A DNA stretch of 64,000 nt, from the NCBI RefSeq assembly GCF_003334305.1, contig NZ_QOWS01000001.1. One strand, given 5' to 3'. The notes below the pieces were generated by a model, which had not been told where the DNA came from, made no database searches, and saw only the letters and a program-made list of their open reading frames with translations. Positions 254 through 50,061 of the stretch are shown here, piece by piece. Position 1 is the first letter of the stretch. Each line of letters opens with the position of its first letter. The DNA is from Escherichia coli. GTDB taxonomy: Bacteria; Pseudomonadota; Gammaproteobacteria; Enterobacterales; Enterobacteriaceae. The position numbers were made by a program, and so were the translations under genes.

Positions 254-294
254 GTGATCTTCCTTAATGCTATGAGTAATTAAGGCGAACGCTA

Positions 295-428
295 AATATA
301 CTCGTCATACTTCAAGTTGCATGTGCTGCGTCTGCGTTCGCTCACCCCAGTCACTTACTTATGTAAGCTCCTGGGGACTCACTCACTTGTCGCCTTCCTG
401 CAACTCGAATTATTTAGAGTATAAATAT
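295..428. repeat. ERIC / IRU (enterobacterial repetitive intergenic consensus) element, full length ~130 bp imperfect palindrome
   Basis: Contains both classic ERIC primer cores: atgtaagctcctgggga.tcac and, as reverse complement, aagtaagtgactggggtgagcg; palindromic ends tatactc...gagtata. Confidence 0.8.
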
Positions 429-571
429 TGCGTGCTGATATTAAGGCTATGCGCGTGGGGAAATTTAAACTGTGAAAGGATTCACAAATAGCTGCGGTTC
501 AGAATGTTACATCCGCAGCTTATTGAGTGAAGTAATAATTATTCTCAATAATTAACATAAAAGAGAAAATA

Positions 572-4025: not shown

Positions 4026-4976
4026 ATGCGTGTGTTACTGGCTCCGATGGAGGGTGTGCTTGACTCTCTGGTGCGTGAATTGCTGACCGAAGTTAACGAC
4101 TACGATCTGTGCATCACCGAGTTTGTCCGCGTGGTGGATCAACTGCTGCCGGTAAAAGTCTTTCATCGCATTTGCCCTGAGCTACAAAACGCCAGCCGGA
4201 CACCATCTGGTACGCTGGTGCGCGTGCAGTTGTTAGGTCAGTTCCCACAATGGCTGGCAGAGAACGCCGCCCGTGCGGTGGAGTTAGGTTCCTGGGGCGT
4301 GGATCTCAATTGCGGCTGCCCGTCGAAAACGGTTAACGGTAGCGGCGGCGGCGCGACGTTACTCAAAGATCCTGAACTCATCTACCAGGGTGCAAAAGCG
4401 ATGCGTGAAGCTGTACCAGCGCATTTGCCCGTCAGCGTAAAAGTGCGTCTGGGCTGGGACAGCGGTGAGAAGAAATTTGAAATCGCCGATGCGGTTCAAC
4501 AGGCTGGCGCTACGGAGCTGGTGGTGCATGGACGGACAAAAGAGCAGGGTTACCGCGCGGAGCATATTGACTGGCAGGCGATTGGCGAGATTCGCCAGCG
4601 GCTGAATATTCCGGTGATTGCCAACGGCGAAATCTGGGACTGGCAGAGCGCGCAACAATGCATTGCGATCAGCGGCTGCGACGCAGTGATGATTGGTCGC
4701 GGGGCGCTCAATATTCCCAACCTGAGCCGGGTAGTAAAATATAACGAACCGCGAATGCCGTGGCCGGAGGTGGTTGCTTTGCTGCAAAAATATACCCGTC
4801 TGGAAAAGCAGGGCGATACCGGGTTATATCACGTTGCGCGGATTAAACAGTGGTTGAGTTATTTGCGTAAAAAATACGATGAAGCAACGGAATTATTTCA
4901 GCATGTTCGGGTGTTGAATAATTCCCCTGATATTGCAAGGGCTATTCAGGCAATTGATATCGATAAGCTGCGATAA
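4026..4976 (+). CDS. dusC: tRNA-dihydrouridine synthase C
   Basis: TIM-barrel Dus family; start taken at [10 protein letters not shown]; recognised. Confidence 0.9.
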
Positions 4977-5084
4977 TAGTGGAATCGCAGTTTATCAGAG
5001 ACAATGAATCGCTTATTCAGCTTCATCATCTTGTTGCGCTCCTTTCATGAGCTAAGCCACATATTGCCACTGGCGCAAGGAGCG

Positions 5085-5290
5085 CGCAGGGGGAGGACAA
5101 TCGCCTCCTCCCCCTGCACCCCCGGGCTCTGGCGAACAAAATCGCCGCTGCGCGGTACCTTCAGCTTATCCCCTTCGTCTACCGGGTCGGGCGCGAGGTA
5201 ACGTCCTTGTAAGACGCGCCCTCAGCCCACATCCATGTGGGCTGCCCCGGCCTTCGGGGAACGCTTCAGCGATTTTGACGCCACCAACAC
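5085..5290. other. GC-rich intergenic element with several strong hairpins, identity unknown
   Basis: Inverted repeats gggggagg...cctccccc (5088..5116), gcccacatccatgtgggc (5224..5241), ccccggccttcgggg (5245..5259); no plausible ORF. Confidence 0.4.
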
Positions 5291-5363
5291 CGGAGCTGTT
5301 TGCAAATCAAGTACACAAAATATCTAGTTCCTGACCTGACAACTTATATGCCATATCTGATTT

Positions 5364-5447: not shown

Positions 5448-5670
5448 TGGCGTTCCTTTATTTGTGAGTGCTGAATAAGTATAGGAAAAAACGAAGCCCT
5501 TTGCCGTTATCCATAAACGATTAAGATAAATCGGAAGATATCATTTACTTAGTCTATATTTTTCTGGATATGTCGTTTTATTGCTACTGATGTATTGCCA
5601 CGCGAAACTAAAAAATATATCGCAACACACGGTAATCTCCGCGCACCTTTTCTTACCTGATTATTCCCCC

Positions 5671-7107
5671 ATGAATCGTGATTCCTTTTATCCAGCCATC
5701 GCCTGTTTTCCGCTGTTACTGATGCTGGCCGGGTGTGCACCTATGCATGAAACCCGCCAGGCGTTAAGCCAGCAAACGCCTGCTGCACAAGTTGACACCG
5801 CATTACCCACGGCGCTGAAAAATGGTTGGCCAGACAGCCAATGGTGGCTGGAGTATCACGATAATCAACTCACTTCCTTAATTAACAATGCACTACAGAA
5901 CGCACCGGATATGCAGGTGGCTGAACAGCGCATTCAGCTAGCTGAAGCCCAGGCGAAGGCAATTGCTACTCAGGATGGTCCGCAGATCGACTTTTCTGCG
6001 GATATGGAGCGGCAAAAAATGTCGGCAGAAGGCTTAATGGGGCCGTTTGCTCTGAACGATCCGGCCGCAGGTACGACCGGTCCGTGGTACACCAACGGAA
6101 CTTTTGGCTTAACGGCGGGCTGGCATCTCGATATCTGGGGAAAGAATCGGGCGGAGGTTACTGCCCGCCTGGGTACGGTTAAAGCACGGGCGGCGGAACG
6201 CGAGCAAACCCGCCAATTGCTGGCTGGCAGCGTAGCCCGCCTGTACTGGGAGTGGCAAACCCAGGCGGCGTTAAACACGGTCTTGCAGCAAATAGAAAAA
6301 GAGCAGAACACCATTATCGCGACCGATCGCCAGCTATATCAGAACGGGATTACTTCTTCAGTTGAAGGTGTGGAAACCGATATTAATGCCAGCAAAACCC
6401 GGCAGCAGCTCAACGATGTCGCGGGGAAAATGAAAATTATTGAGGCACGGTTAAGCGCACTTACAAATAACCAGACAAAGTCATTGAAGCTTAAACCGGT
6501 CGCGTTGCCGAAAGTGGCAAGCCAGCTTCCTGATGAACTGGGGTACTCCTTACTGGCCCGGCGGGCAGATTTGCAGGCGGCGCACTGGTACGTTGAGTCA
6601 TCGCTAAGCACCATTGATGCGGCAAAAGCGGCATTTTATCCTGACATCAACCTGATGGCCTTCCTGCAACAGGATGCGTTGCACTTAAGCGATCTGTTCC
6701 GTCATTCCGCGCAGCAAATGGGCGTTACGGCAGGCCTGACGCTACCCATTTTCGATAGTGGTCGTCTTAACGCCAATCTCGATATCGCAAAAGCCGAAAG
6801 CAACTTGTCTATCGCCAGCTACAACAAAGCGGTGGTTGAAGCGGTGAATGACGTGGCGCGGGCAGCCAGTCAGGTTCAGACACTTGCGGAGAAAAACCAG
6901 CATCAGGCGCAAATTGAGCGCGATGCCTTGCGTGTGGTAGGTCTTGCGCAGGCGCGCTTTAACGCGGGCATCATTGCTGGTTCCCGCGTCAGCGAAGCCA
7001 GAATCCCCGCGCTGCGTGAGCGGGCCAATGGCCTGTTATTGCAAGGGCAGTGGCTGGATGCTTCCATTCAACTCACTGGTGCGTTGGGCGGGGGTTACAA
7101 ACGCTGA
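5671..7107 (+). CDS. mdtQ: Outer-membrane efflux lipoprotein, TolC/OprM (NodT) family, apparently intact
   Basis: Lipoprotein signal peptide ending LLMLAGC (lipobox), 478 aa uninterrupted; recognised as yohG/mdtQ. Confidence 0.85.
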   Translation: MNRDSFYPAIACFPLLLMLAGCAPMHETRQALSQQTPAAQVDTALPTALKNGWPDSQWWLEYHDNQLTSLINNALQNAPDMQVAEQRIQLAEAQAKAIATQDGPQIDFSADMERQKMSAEGLMGPFALNDPAAGTTGPWYTNGTFGLTAGWHLDIWGKNRAEVTARLGTVKARAAEREQTRQLLAGSVARLYWEWQTQAALNTVLQQIEKEQNTIIATDRQLYQNGITSSVEGVETDINASKTRQQLNDVAGKMKIIEARLSALTNNQTKSLKLKPVALPKVASQLPDELGYSLLARRADLQAAHWYVESSLSTIDAAKAAFYPDINLMAFLQQDALHLSDLFRHSAQQMGVTAGLTLPIFDSGRLNANLDIAKAESNLSIASYNKAVVEAVNDVARAASQVQTLAEKNQHQAQIERDALRVVGLAQARFNAGIIAGSRVSEARIPALRERANGLLLQGQWLDASIQLTGALGGGYKR

Positions 7108-9386: not shown

Positions 9387-9559
9387 AAAGTTCTTTGACG
9401 TTGCATTGCTGGCGTAAATGTCAGCAATGCAGCATTTCCTCACGATTCTCCTTTGACGATCGCACTTTTTGCTCGTTATGATGGCGTCGCTAGCCTCAGT
9501 AAATCCTTACTCCGGCGGTGCGCAACCCGTGCGCGTGAACCACTATCTGAATGCTCATC

Positions 9560-29941: not shown

Positions 29942-30028
29942 AAATAAAAAAACCTGCTGGTGAGGCAGGTTCTTTTATTTACTATTTTCAGGCCTAACAC
30001 CACAGCCTGTGCAACATCGTGTTCCAAC
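29942..30028 (-). ncRNA. orzP: Orz-like antisense sRNA (type I antitoxin), copy proximal to yehL; approximate ends
   Basis: Minus-strand sigma70 promoter (-35 ttgcaa 30058..30063, -10 tataat = plus attata 30035..30040); intrinsic terminator 29951..29971 plus U-run; 5' end complementary to zor leader at 30175..30194. Confidence 0.55.
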
Positions 30029-30034
30029 GAACGA

Positions 30035-30085
30035 ATTATAACCACGGCTGGACCCCGTTGCAATTAAGATAATGAGATTTATAAT
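30035..30085. promoter_or_regulatory. Divergent overlapping sigma70 promoters sharing one palindromic -35 hexamer (TTGCAA)
   Basis: ttgcaa at 30058..30063 is its own reverse complement; plus-strand -10 tataat 30080..30085 (16-nt spacer); minus-strand -10 at 30035..30040 (17-nt spacer). Confidence 0.55.
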
Positions 30086-30266
30086 CCAGACCGTTGGGAC
30101 GTTGCGCCGGATCGAACCTATTTCAAGTCCTGGCTACCGGACGGGGGGTGCTGCAGGTGGTGCCCTGATCCGGAGTGCAACATCGTGGTCCAACATACGT
30201 AAACCAGTATCGACAGGCAGTGTAAGGGTAAGGTGCTGGTGTTGCGCTCCTTAATAAGGAGAGCGG

Positions 30267-30356
30267 ATGGACTCGCTGACACAAAAGTTAACCGTGCTCA
30301 TTGCTGTACTGGAGCTATTAGTGGCTCTGTTACGGTTGATTGATTTGTTGAAGTAA
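30267..30356 (+). CDS. zorP: 29-aa hydrophobic type I toxin peptide, Zor family (MDSLTQKLTVLIAVLELLVALLRLIDLLK)
   Basis: ATG 8 nt after SD ggagag; single TM helix with C-terminal Lys; predicted leader ~174 nt from TSS ~30093; O versus P naming inferred from position. Confidence 0.6.
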   Translation: MDSLTQKLTVLIAVLELLVALLRLIDLLK

Positions 30357-30376
30357 CGGGCAAATTGAAACGCATC

Positions 30377-30404
30377 TAAGGGGGAAAACCGCTTCCCCCT
30401 TTAA
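30377..30404 (+). terminator. Intrinsic terminator of toxin mRNA (copy 1)
   Basis: aaggggga aaaccgc ttccccctt hairpin followed by tt/aat. Confidence 0.6.
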
Positions 30405-30551
30405 TAAAATGATTACTGTTTTTATTAATTCATCATATAACTCATTTTTATTTATAAATTCATCGATTTTATATTCAACGCACCATTTGACCGGGATGTG
30501 AATATTTATGTTGGGCTATTGGCAAAAAATATCTGGAAAGTAGATCGCAGA

Positions 30552-30636
30552 AAATAAAAAAACCTGCTGGTGAGGCAGGTTCTTTTATTTACTACAGTGA
30601 CGCTAACTTGCTGATTGTGCAACATTTCGTACCAAC
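30552..30636 (-). ncRNA. orzO: Orz-like antisense sRNA (type I antitoxin), copy proximal to yehK; approximate ends
   Basis: Same architecture as copy 1: -35 ttgcaa 30666..30671, minus -10 at 30643..30648, terminator 30561..30581; 5' end complementary to leader 30785..30802. Confidence 0.55.
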
Positions 30637-30642
30637 GAATAA

Positions 30643-30693
30643 ATTATAACCATATCCACACTCCATTGCAATTCAGTGAGTGAGATTTATAAT
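30643..30693. promoter_or_regulatory. Divergent overlapping sigma70 promoters sharing a palindromic -35 (copy 2)
   Basis: ttgcaa 30666..30671; plus -10 tataat 30688..30693; minus -10 at 30643..30648. Confidence 0.55.
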
Positions 30694-30874
30694 CCTGCCC
30701 GTTGGGAGGTTGTGCCGGATCGGACCAATTTTAAGTCCTGGCTGCCGGACGGGTGGTGCCGCAGGCGGTGCCCTGATCCGGAGAGCAACGTTTCGTACCA
30801 ACATACGTAAACCAGTATCAACAGGCAGTGTAAGGGTAAGGTGCTGGTGTTGCGCTCCTTAATAAGGAGAGCGG

Positions 30875-30964
30875 ATGGACACGCTGACACAAAAGTTAAC
30901 CGTGCTCATTGCCGTACTGGAGTTATTAGTGGCTCTGTTACGGTTGATTGATTTGTTGAAGTAA
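30875..30964 (+). CDS. zorO: 29-aa hydrophobic type I toxin peptide, Zor family (MDTLTQKLTVLIAVLELLVALLRLIDLLK)
   Basis: Differs from copy 1 peptide by one residue (T3 vs S3); SD ggagag; hand-translated, below ORF-track cut-off. Confidence 0.6.
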   Translation: MDTLTQKLTVLIAVLELLVALLRLIDLLK

Positions 30965-30984
30965 CGGGCAAATTGAAACGCATC

Positions 30985-31012
30985 TAAGGGGGAATACCGT
31001 TTCCCCCTTTAA
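30985..31012 (+). terminator. Intrinsic terminator of toxin mRNA (copy 2)
   Basis: aaggggga ataccgt ttccccctt hairpin. Confidence 0.6.
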
Positions 31013-31017
31013 GAAAG

Positions 31018-31073
31018 CTATACTCGTCATACTTCAAGTTGCATGTGCTGCGACTTTAATTATCTAGAGTATA
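31018..31073. repeat. Short ERIC variant (both ERIC termini joined, central part absent)
   Basis: ctatactcgtcatacttcaagttgcatgtgctgcg matches the left end of the ERIC at 295..428, and aattatctagagtata matches its right end. Confidence 0.65.
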
Positions 31074-35093: not shown

Positions 35094-38000
35094 TTATTCA
35101 AACAGGGCTTCAATATCGTTAATTAGCTCGCTGGCGGTGATGGCATCGAGTACGGAGAACTGCGCTTCCTGTGTTGAATTACTCCCCCAGCCATAGCTTT
35201 CCGCTTTGCCTTCCCATAACCACAGCTTGCTTAAGAGCTGCTCAGCGCTAAGTTCGGCTGGTGACATACCCACCGCAAAACCTTCGTCGATTTCCATGAT
35301 TAACGACCAGCGACCCAAAGGTTTGATCATCCATCCGATCCAGCCTCCATCCTGTGGTTCGCCCTTTATCCAGCCTTTATTCGCCAGCCCCATGACCCGA
35401 CCACTCGGGCATTTTCTGCCTGCCCAGCGGGTCAGTTCACTGGCATTGTGCTCGGCTTCTGTCAGGGCGTAGCTGTTACGGTCGAGCTGGCGGAACGGTG
35501 GTAGCAGTTCGTAGTCGGCAAAAAGCTGACCAAAGGCGGCAGCATCCGTTGGTGATATTTCCAGAACGTGAGGAGTGCCGATAGAGATATCGCCTTCCGG
35601 CAGGGTGAAAAGATCATCGTCAGCGGTGCTGTAGCTGTTATCTTCTGCTACGCGAAAGCAAGCCAGTAGCTGGTTTTCGGCGCTATAAACGCCCCAAATC
35701 AGACGGCGGGTTAAGTGGCGAACCAGCGGATGCTCAACCAGGAAGAGCTGGAAGTTTTCCGGCGACCAGCGGCGGCGCAGGCACATGGCGGATTCCAGCC
35801 TTGCTACCTGCTGGGCGGCGACGGTACGCGCATCTTTTTTCAGCAATTTGTAGCGGTTAACCGCATCGTTCGACCGCGATTCATCATCGCTTTTGTTCGG
35901 TTTGGGCAGGTCTTTCAGGCGGCTGCCGGAAACATCACGCACAAACGGTTTTAAGGTTTCATCAAAGCTGACGGTGAACTGCCGTGGGCCAAAATCCAGC
36001 AGCAGCGAACCGTTATCATCCAGACCGAGATCCGGTGCTAACCGATCTTCAAGCTCCGCCACCGTGAGTTCGCGGCTCTCGGCAATGTCGGCAATTTTTT
36101 CTTTTGCCCGCTCCTGTAATGCTTTGAATTTCAGTTTCTGGGCGATGCCGTTAAGCTGCATAAGGGCGATATCACTACCGATAGCAGCGAGAATATCCAA
36201 CCCAACGGTGGCGCGTTTATGCTGGGATTCACCAGGCCAGGCGCGTATTAATGGCGTCAGTTTGCGGGCGGTGTCATCGTTACCGAGAACGCCTAACGCA
36301 GTGAACGCCCAACTCTCTTTCGACGGCGCGCCAGCGGTCTGCCAGGCGGTAAACAGATCCCAGGCAAATCCCGCCAGTGAGTCGGCGGAACAGACGTCTT
36401 TCACCTGCAATAATCCCGGATACAGAGCCTCTTCCTGAGGGAAGCGGAGCATTTCACCGAGGTGGAGGAGGGCGCTATCTGGCAGTGATTGGGCATTTGC
36501 TTTTAATACCGGGCGCGTCCAGAGCGATGGCTGATAAAAGGCCGGAAGAGTGGGGATTTTTGTCGGGTGATTATCTAAGGGATCGAGCGCAAGCAGAGCG
36601 TTCACCGCATCGGTTACTTCCGGCTGGTTATAACGTCGGGCGATTTCTTGCAGTAATGGCTGATGACCGTTTTCGGTAAGCATACGCAAGGCAGCGCGGG
36701 CGTTATCCTGTGCTTCACCGGCTTTGCCGAGCGCCGCAGGCAGCAGGCCGGTAAGGGCATGTTCCGGGTATTTCAACAGCCAGCTACGGGCGTTTTCGCG
36801 TAGCGTTTTCAGTTTGTTGAAGGCACGGGCGACGGCAGGAGCCAGCTCACTCGCTGCGAAGTAATTCGTGATGGGCAAGGCTTCTTGTGGATAGCGTGCA
36901 AGTGAGTTTACTAACCCAGGTAACCCTTTGAGTCCAAAATGTAACATGGCGTATTCGGTATCGGTATGTGGAGATAGGGTAAGGGCATTCCATGCTTTTA
37001 CTGCTTTCTCCAGCGGCAATGTTGTCAAAATCCCCAACTGCCAATAATGCCCGGTAGGTGAATGAAACACCTTAAATTCACTTAGTAAGGTTGAATAATC
37101 TTCATTTAGCCATGCCTCAACTACCGCTTCGGGAGCTTTAATATATGTACCAGCGATCCGTCGTTGAAAACCCATCCTTGCCAACAGGTTGGTAGTACTT
37201 TCTTCATGGCTAACCGTGATGTGTTTTGAATACCAGATATATTTCGCCAAAAGTTGATTACTGATTTCTTCTGTCAGATAACAGATTGGCTCAATGCCTA
37301 ATGGCGCTAAATCCAGCACCGGAATCGGCGATTTTTTCTTTTTCGAAAGCCAGGGAGGGGAGACTACTACGGCTGGCAGTAGATCGGCGCTGGCATGGTT
37401 TGAGGGCTGTGTCAGTTGTTGCTGGCATGATTTCAGTACGGCAACTGCGGGTGTCGAGAGCCAGGGAATGACCTGTTCTGCCAGTGCTGGTTGTGAGATA
37501 AGCATTGTCATTAGCATAATGCGCCAACTGTTCTCTTCTTTTTGCCCAAGAAGTTCCGTCAGTGCCGCCATTGCTGCATGTGGGAACGCAGCGCAGGCTT
37601 TCGTCATCCGATCGTGACAGCGTTTAGTATGCCCGGCTACACGTATAAGCAGTGTTAATGCGAACGGATGATTGATATGACGCAACACATCGGCGCAGTA
37701 GTCACTTGCGGCATAGGGAGCAAATCGGGGCAGGGCTGCAACACCTTGCTCCTGTAATACGGTGGCTGACCATATCGCACCACAATAGTAATCATCAAAA
37801 ATGGCATATGGCTCGTGATATTTTTCTAATGAGGCAAGAATGTGCTCATCAGTCGCCACTATTTTTAACCACTCAAGCGAGGGTAATTTTTTTTGCCCCA
37901 GTAGACGCTGGGCAATTTCATGTGCAATTTCTGGTTTTTCGGGTAATAACAAAGCAATTAATGGTTGCCGCCATTCTGGAATATGTGGAATTGCGGCAAT

Positions 38001-49929: not shown

Positions 49930-50061
49930 ACCAAACGACTCGGGGTGCCCTTCTGCGTGAAGGCTGAGAAATACCCGTATCACCTGATCTGGATAATGCC
50001 AGCGTAGGGAAGTCACGGACCACCAGGTCATTGCTTCTTCACGTTATGGCAGGAGCAAACT
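49930..50061 (+). promoter_or_regulatory. TPP (thiamine pyrophosphate) riboswitch / THI-box in the thiM leader
   Basis: cggggtgcccttctgcgtgaaggctgagaaatacccgtatcacctgatctggataatgccagcgtagggaa matches the THI element consensus, directly upstream of thiM. Confidence 0.85.

Follow-up and report, generated by a model that had tools for sequence, protein, structure and literature searches.

Does the open reading frame at positions 5671 to 7107 encode a complete outer-membrane channel, and does possession of it set this Escherichia coli strain apart from others? We addressed both questions in a window of 64,000 nucleotides, the whole stretch of DNA that was analysed (RefSeq assembly GCF_003334305.1, contig NZ_QOWS01000001.1). 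The initial annotation had read the frame as an intact mdtQ, took the K-12 allele to be a pseudogene, and suggested that the strain may have a functional extra channel relevant to drug efflux. [quoted passage not shown]" The function of MdtQ is, according to the review, "not elucidated," and the same is said of its partner pump. [quoted passage not shown] If the strain behind the primary report on this phenotype (Sulavik et al. 2001) was K-12, a phenotype arising from the deletion of a frameshifted mdtQ would be odd. The relevance of MdtQ to drug efflux is, in the literature, weak (PMC11762307, PMC9241588).

An Intact Reading Frame for MdtQ

We are highly confident that the frame in the window is the wild-type, intact mdtQ (formerly yohG), a core enterobacterial gene for an outer-membrane factor (OMF) lipoprotein of the NodT/OprM class. 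The 478-codon frame is free of stops (Table 1), and the MdtQ equivalog model NF008524 (NCBIfam) matches its product from residue 1 to residue 478 of 478 with 1023.9 bits (E = 0), where the cut-off is 650. On the NodT subfamily model TIGR01845 the protein scores 273.8 bits and so exceeds the threshold of 210.05. Pfam places two OEP repeats in tandem, as expected for an outer-membrane factor, and these repeats, the end-to-end match to NF008524, and the alignment with VceC over residues 51−477 described below confirm the full-length TolC/OprM-family body that had been claimed for this frame.

The N-terminus reads MNRDSFYPAIACFPLLLMLAGC, followed by AP, and contains a short n-region with Arg3 and then a hydrophobic h-region, which together with the lipobox make up a predicted type II lipoprotein signal peptide. 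The LAGC lipobox named in the initial annotation is indeed there (L19-A-G-C22), and its Cys22 is invariant among 50 homologues. The residue at position +2 after the lipobox Cys is Ala. Under the Lol sorting rule, Ala at +2 sends a lipoprotein to the outer membrane, and MdtQ is for this reason predicted to be an outer-membrane lipoprotein.

An internal defect in the frame was looked for by comparison with 10 other E. coli strains, Salmonella, and Citrobacter, and neither an indel nor a stop was found. Over 1,701 nt the DNA is 100% identical to that of strain cq9 in RefSeq, where the same CDS is annotated (WP_001078114.1), and since many genomes share this exact sequence, a sequencing error in the window allele is unlikely. 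The order of the genes in the window is dusC, yohP (on the opposite strand), mdtQ, yohF, and yohD, which matches that of K-12.

Table 1. Coordinates of mdtQ, its parts, and other features of the window
Feature	Position	Strand	Description	Basis
mdtQ (yohG) CDS	5671..7107	+	ATG at 5671, TGA ending at 7107, 478 aa, no internal stop	ORF listing, translation
Signal peptide, lipoprotein type II (predicted)	5671..5736	+	residues 1-22	direct sequence reading
Lipobox L19-A20-G21-C22	5725-5736	+		direct sequence reading
Cys22	5734-5736	+	predicted acylated N-terminus of mature MdtQ; invariant	alignment of 50 homologues
A5 homopolymer	5818..5822	+	codons K50-N51; A4 in K-12 = -1 frameshift	pairwise alignment
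OEP repeat 1	5875..6468	+	residues 69-266; E = 3.2e-17	Pfam PF02321
OEP repeat 2	6547..7089	+	residues 293-473; E = 9.8e-13	Pfam PF02321
yohP-mdtQ divergent intergenic region	5448..5670	.	223 nt; 37% GC vs 54.5% in mdtQ
Conserved 27-nt block GATGTATTGCCACGCGAAACTAAAAAA	5589..5615	+	56-82 nt upstream of mdtQ ATG	intergenic alignment
C-rich stretch	5650-5670		directly 5' of mdtQ ATG
Repeat (TRIP1c)	5022-5325		~300 nt, between dusC stop (4976) and yohP 3' end (5364)
Extra sequence relative to K-12	292-434		~143 nt, near preT end, upstream of yeiS/sanA side
Peptidase-S11 RNA motif	9475-9555	+	upstream of pbpG	Rfam
zor-orz type I toxin-antitoxin	29946-30964		two tandem units
OrzO-P RNAs	29946-30021 and 30556-30629	-
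zor toxin ORFs	30267-30356 and 30875-30964	+	29 aa each
yehH	35094-37952	-	intact
TPP riboswitch	49931-50027	+	upstream of thiMD	Rfam
gatC	61086-62441	+	intact

The K-12 Allele

In K-12 MG1655 the gene (b2139, formerly yohG/yohH) is 1,436 nt long and carries a pseudogene annotation; in a K-12-like RefSeq record, mdtQ bears the label "frameshifted." We compared the alleles by pairwise alignment of the window with b2139 of NC_000913. The locus and its synteny (dusC-yohP-mdtQ-yohF-yohD) are shared and the identity is 99.2%, but K-12 has one A fewer in the A5 run, whereas the window allele keeps the open frame. The lost A shifts the frame of b2139 at codon 50 and leads to a stop ∼20 codons on, with the remaining protein readable in the −1 frame. 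This deletion is the single indel between the two alleles; the rest of the difference amounts to 10 substitutions, nine of them synonymous at third positions and one giving I98V. The alignment thus finds no intact frame in K-12, and the statement that its allele is a pseudogene was correct. The window allele, with its five A residues and open frame, is not a pseudogene of the K-12 type.

Intact mdtQ as the Species Norm

Of 5,426 complete E. coli genomes, 5,424 contain the 1.7-kb mdtQ region, which always lies on the chromosome and is as a rule single-copy. The exact K-12 allele, sought with an 81-nt probe that carries the deletion, occurs in 355 of 5,412 genomes; among the matches listed (60), all are K-12 laboratory derivatives, including MG1655, W3110-type strains, DH5alpha, DH1, C600, J53, HST04, and NCM3722. 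When a window-type probe was used, a spread sample of 60 rows contained four of the K-12 type, and the non-K-12 rows were all gap-free. We also sampled ten diverse genomes (96.9−99.4% identity) of isolates from humans, dogs, and pigs, with blood, urine, CSF, and stool among the sources; each has an mdtQ CDS of 1,437 nt with a protein accession, the same start, and no pseudo flag. All 11 E. coli alleles share one signal peptide sequence. The A deletion is confined to the K-12 lineage, and intact mdtQ is the species norm and the ancestral state, with K-12 as the exception.

The implication that an "extra" channel sets this strain apart is therefore not borne out: the locus is nearly universal, the K-12 deletion is limited to the 355 genomes above, and all ten of the sampled genomes are intact. 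The protein has the same annotation as the MdtQ of non-K-12 E. coli (WP_001078114.1 of cq9; Q8X659 of O157:H7, discussed in PMC11762307), to which it is an identical or near-identical 478-aa lipoprotein; there is no substantive difference, and the window adds one more instance. The finding is already known and ordinary, since RefSeq annotates intact MdtQ in thousands of genomes.

Other inactivations were seen among the E. coli genomes. Strain PKF8 (NZ_CP156813.1) has an IS1 insertion inside mdtQ, and in strain MRE162 (NZ_CP119400.1) the match to the 1.7-kb region is down to 38 nt, a near-absence. These two are rare, independent natural inactivations. In a study of Salmonella (PMC9241588), independent truncations of mdtQ were found in a few isolates of S. 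Typhi and Paratyphi A.

Purifying Selection on mdtQ

The 11 E. coli alleles differ at 93 nucleotides, distributed 19/10/64 over the first, second, and third codon positions, with a pooled pN/pS of 0.08 and only 20 polymorphic amino acid positions. Orthologues have 478−479 aa, with identities of 94% in E. albertii, 82% in Salmonella, and 81% in Citrobacter, and a comparison of the loci in K-12, cq9, Salmonella, and Citrobacter shows that the place of mdtQ between dusC/yohP and yohF/yohD is kept. Against Salmonella and Citrobacter, dN/dS is ∼0.06, a value similar to those of the flanking dusC and yohF and approximate because dS versus Salmonella is saturated. These substitution patterns indicate that mdtQ is under purifying selection both within E. 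coli and among Escherichia, Salmonella, and Citrobacter. Low pN/pS and dN/dS mark mdtQ as a gene that is in use and not in decay.

Upstream Region and Expression

The promoter of mdtQ should sit within the 223-nt region that separates it from the divergent yohP. A promoter and terminator scan of positions 4900−7300 gave nothing upstream of mdtQ above the shuffled expectation, and the 223 nt contain no sigma-70 consensus. We claim no mdtQ promoter because the scan gave nothing above chance, and the review likewise states that the promoter has not been experimentally confirmed (PMC11762307). Directly before the ATG, no Shine-Dalgarno sequence is present in Escherichia, Salmonella, or Citrobacter; in all three genera a C-rich stretch lies directly 5' of the start codon.

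The intergenic alignment contains one strongly conserved element, the 27-nt block GATGTATTGCCACGCGAAACTAAAAAA, which E. coli, Salmonella, and Citrobacter share at 26 of its 27 positions, compared with a mean identity of 63% for the alignment. Citrobacter has another gene in place of yohP, yet the block is kept, and for this reason it probably belongs to mdtQ. The block may be a promoter or the site of a regulator.

These features bear on a different reading of the locus, namely that mdtQ is intact but effectively cryptic, with weak or conditional expression, no contribution to drug efflux, and no phenotypic consequence relative to K-12. The lack of a promoter-like site above chance and of a Shine-Dalgarno sequence speaks for such a reading, as do the AT-rich upstream region (37% GC), the "not elucidated" function with its slight reported phenotypes, and the fact that K-12 and a small number of natural strains tolerate loss of the gene. 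Against it stand the strong purifying selection seen both within E. coli and between species and the 27-nt upstream block that three genera share; both argue that mdtQ is used and regulated in nature. We consider a cryptic mdtQ quite improbable, and note that a gene "silent in the laboratory" would be compatible with our main explanation, a wild-type intact allele.

Far less credible is an open frame that conceals a less obvious loss-of-function mutation, for instance a missense substitution at an essential residue, and so represents an incipient pseudogene. The DNA is 100% identical to that of other isolates, every family-invariant and near-invariant residue is present in the window protein, and the 1023.9 bits on the equivalog model come with few polymorphic amino acid positions (20 in the 11 alleles). 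We rejected a hidden defect on the basis of this identity, the full-length HMM score, and the conserved residues. An equally negligible chance attaches to a homopolymer sequencing artefact in the window or in the K-12 reference: the lesion does sit in a homopolymer run, a typical spot for sequencing errors, but a run of 4−5 bases is not long enough to produce errors systematically, and we rejected the artefact because A4 recurs in 355 independently sequenced, concordant genomes of the K-12 lineage, as against A5 in thousands of non-K-12 genomes.

Predicted Fold and a Proposed Channel Mechanism

An AlphaFold2 (AF2) model of the wild-type MdtQ was built from the 50-sequence alignment. The model has a mean pLDDT of 84.2 and a pTM of 0.78, and it consists of four beta-strands and long helical hairpins. 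In the first OEP repeat the strands span residues 105−116 and 139−153 and the long helices residues 158−224 and 230−265; in the second, the strands span residues 325−336 and 348−357 and the helices residues 359−431 and 437−471. A Foldseek search against the PDB returned only outer-membrane factors as top matches, including OprN, CusC, CmeC, SilC, OprM, and MtrE, with TolC more distant; a probability of 1.00 was obtained for VceC, OprN, CusC, CmeC, SilC, OprM, and TolC. The MdtQ protomer is thus predicted to have a TolC-type fold, closest to those of VceC, OprN, and CusC, and a TolC-like AlphaFold model for MdtQ is also given in the review (PMC11762307).

Among solved structures, the best homologue by sequence is the channel protein of the Vibrio cholerae VceCAB system (MFS type), VceC (PDB 1YC9), which aligns to residues 51−477 with E = 1.1e-39; it is also the best by fold (Foldseek E = 2e-23, TMt 0.87). 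VceC is ∼25% identical to MdtQ and, in contrast to it, is encoded alongside a pump of its own, VceAB. TolC of E. coli (PDB 1EK9) shares the overall architecture (Foldseek probability 1.00, TMt 0.76), but the identity is 12−13% and TolC, unlike MdtQ, is not a lipoprotein. The TolC subfamily is also separate by profile, as MdtQ scores 53.5 bits on TIGR01844 against a cut-off of 225.

On this model, MdtQ would be exported by Sec, acylated at Cys22, and then transferred to the outer membrane by Lol. Three protomers would assemble into a 12-strand beta-barrel and a long periplasmic alpha-barrel, and the tips of the helix-turn-helix hairpins would dock tip-to-tip with the periplasmic adaptor of an inner-membrane pump, for which the trimer would serve as the exit duct in the outer membrane. 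Two glycines, G226 and G433, occupy the helix turns in the AF2 model, and both are conserved in at least 90% of the 50-homologue alignment; the conservation of these tips fits tip-to-tip docking, a reading that we draw from the established TolC/OprM mechanism.

Orphan Status and Candidate Pump Partners

No adaptor or pump gene was found near mdtQ in the window or at the Salmonella and Citrobacter loci, and the review describes mdtQ as "encoded independently" (PMC11762307). The closest paralogous family is that of MdtP (YjcP), the outer-membrane subunit of MdtNOP and, like MdtQ, a NodT-class lipoprotein. The MdtP model NF007390 is the second-best HMM for MdtQ, at 356 bits and under its cut-off of 597, and MdtP-like representatives are 35−37% identical to MdtQ. 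MdtP differs in that it is encoded in an operon with the adaptor MdtN and the FUSC-type permease MdtO, whereas mdtQ is an orphan in Escherichia, Salmonella, and Citrobacter. A slight puromycin and acriflavine phenotype has been reported for MdtP as for MdtQ (PMC11762307).

We surveyed the contig neighbourhoods of the nearest non-orthologous cluster representatives, at 35−42% identity, of which five were informative; two others, P0121 (60% identity) and P0132, were left out because their contigs are too short. Four of the five (P0125, P0127, P0129, and P0130) lie immediately downstream of an MdtO-like permease of the FUSC family, and on the two long contigs of this set an MdtN/AaeA-like adaptor and a YtcA-like gene precede the permease. 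In the case of the fifth, P0131, the flanking genes encode an EmrB-like MFS permease and an EmrA-like adaptor. These neighbourhoods, together with the rank of the MdtP family as second-best HMM, suggest that MdtQ descends from a channel of the MdtNOP or VceCAB type and was orphaned before Escherichia, Salmonella, and Citrobacter split. Given these contexts, and with VceC as the best solved homologue by sequence, adaptors of the EmrA/MdtN/AaeA class would be our first choice as partners of MdtQ over AcrA-class RND adaptors, an assignment that we make tentatively.

A more specific proposal is that MdtQ could be the natural exit duct of a pump whose channel is unassigned or assumed, with AaeAB, MdtNO-like, and EmrA-class systems as candidates. 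It draws on the fact that the nearest non-orthologous relatives directly follow FUSC-type permeases with MdtN/AaeA-like adaptors. AaeAB is an obvious candidate because a table in Chem Rev lists it as "AaeAB-?" and gives no known channel. MdtQ is not an obligatory channel of AaeAB or EmrAB, as both work in K-12, where mdtQ is dead. We regard the exit-duct proposal as rather unlikely.

Other Features of the Window

The difference at mdtQ is one of several K-12-specific lesions in this region. Both gatC and yehH are intact in the window; K-12 has two extra G residues in the former and one extra G in the latter. At gatR (∼63931), the IS3E insertion of K-12 is absent from the window. The window also carries two tandem zor-orz units, and K-12 (2204304-2204522) is without a counterpart of window positions 30127-31054, so that one Orz RNA gene, the first, remains and both toxin genes are absent, an arrangement that leaves an orphan antitoxin sRNA.

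A ∼143-nt segment near the preT end is extra relative to K-12 and contains …CTCACCCCAGTCACTTACTTATGTAAGCTCCTGGGGA…, which we take to be the ERIC/IRU core. The ∼300-nt repeat between dusC and yohP has the opposite orientation in K-12 and is 88.6% identical to the K-12 copy, compared with ∼98.5% for the flanks. It is multi-copy, with 17,481 places in 5,426 E. coli genomes (median of three per genome), the arrangement seen in the window is common to ∼2,000 genomes, and no Rfam family matches it. We considered and rejected the idea that the repeat is novel, as it is the known TRIP1c, which has been described as a substrate for chromosomal rearrangements (PMC10888264). The Peptidase-S11 motif and the TPP riboswitch are ordinary and expected at the pbpG and thiMD loci.

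Implications

If MdtQ were the natural exit duct of such a pump, decades of efflux work in K-12 would have been done without that channel, and in wild strains such as this one, aromatic acids or other metabolites would leave the cell by a route that does not need TolC. K-12 is atypical at mdtQ, as it is at yehH, gatC, gatR, and zor-orz in the same window, and the set of outer-membrane channels inferred from K-12 does not automatically hold for natural isolates.
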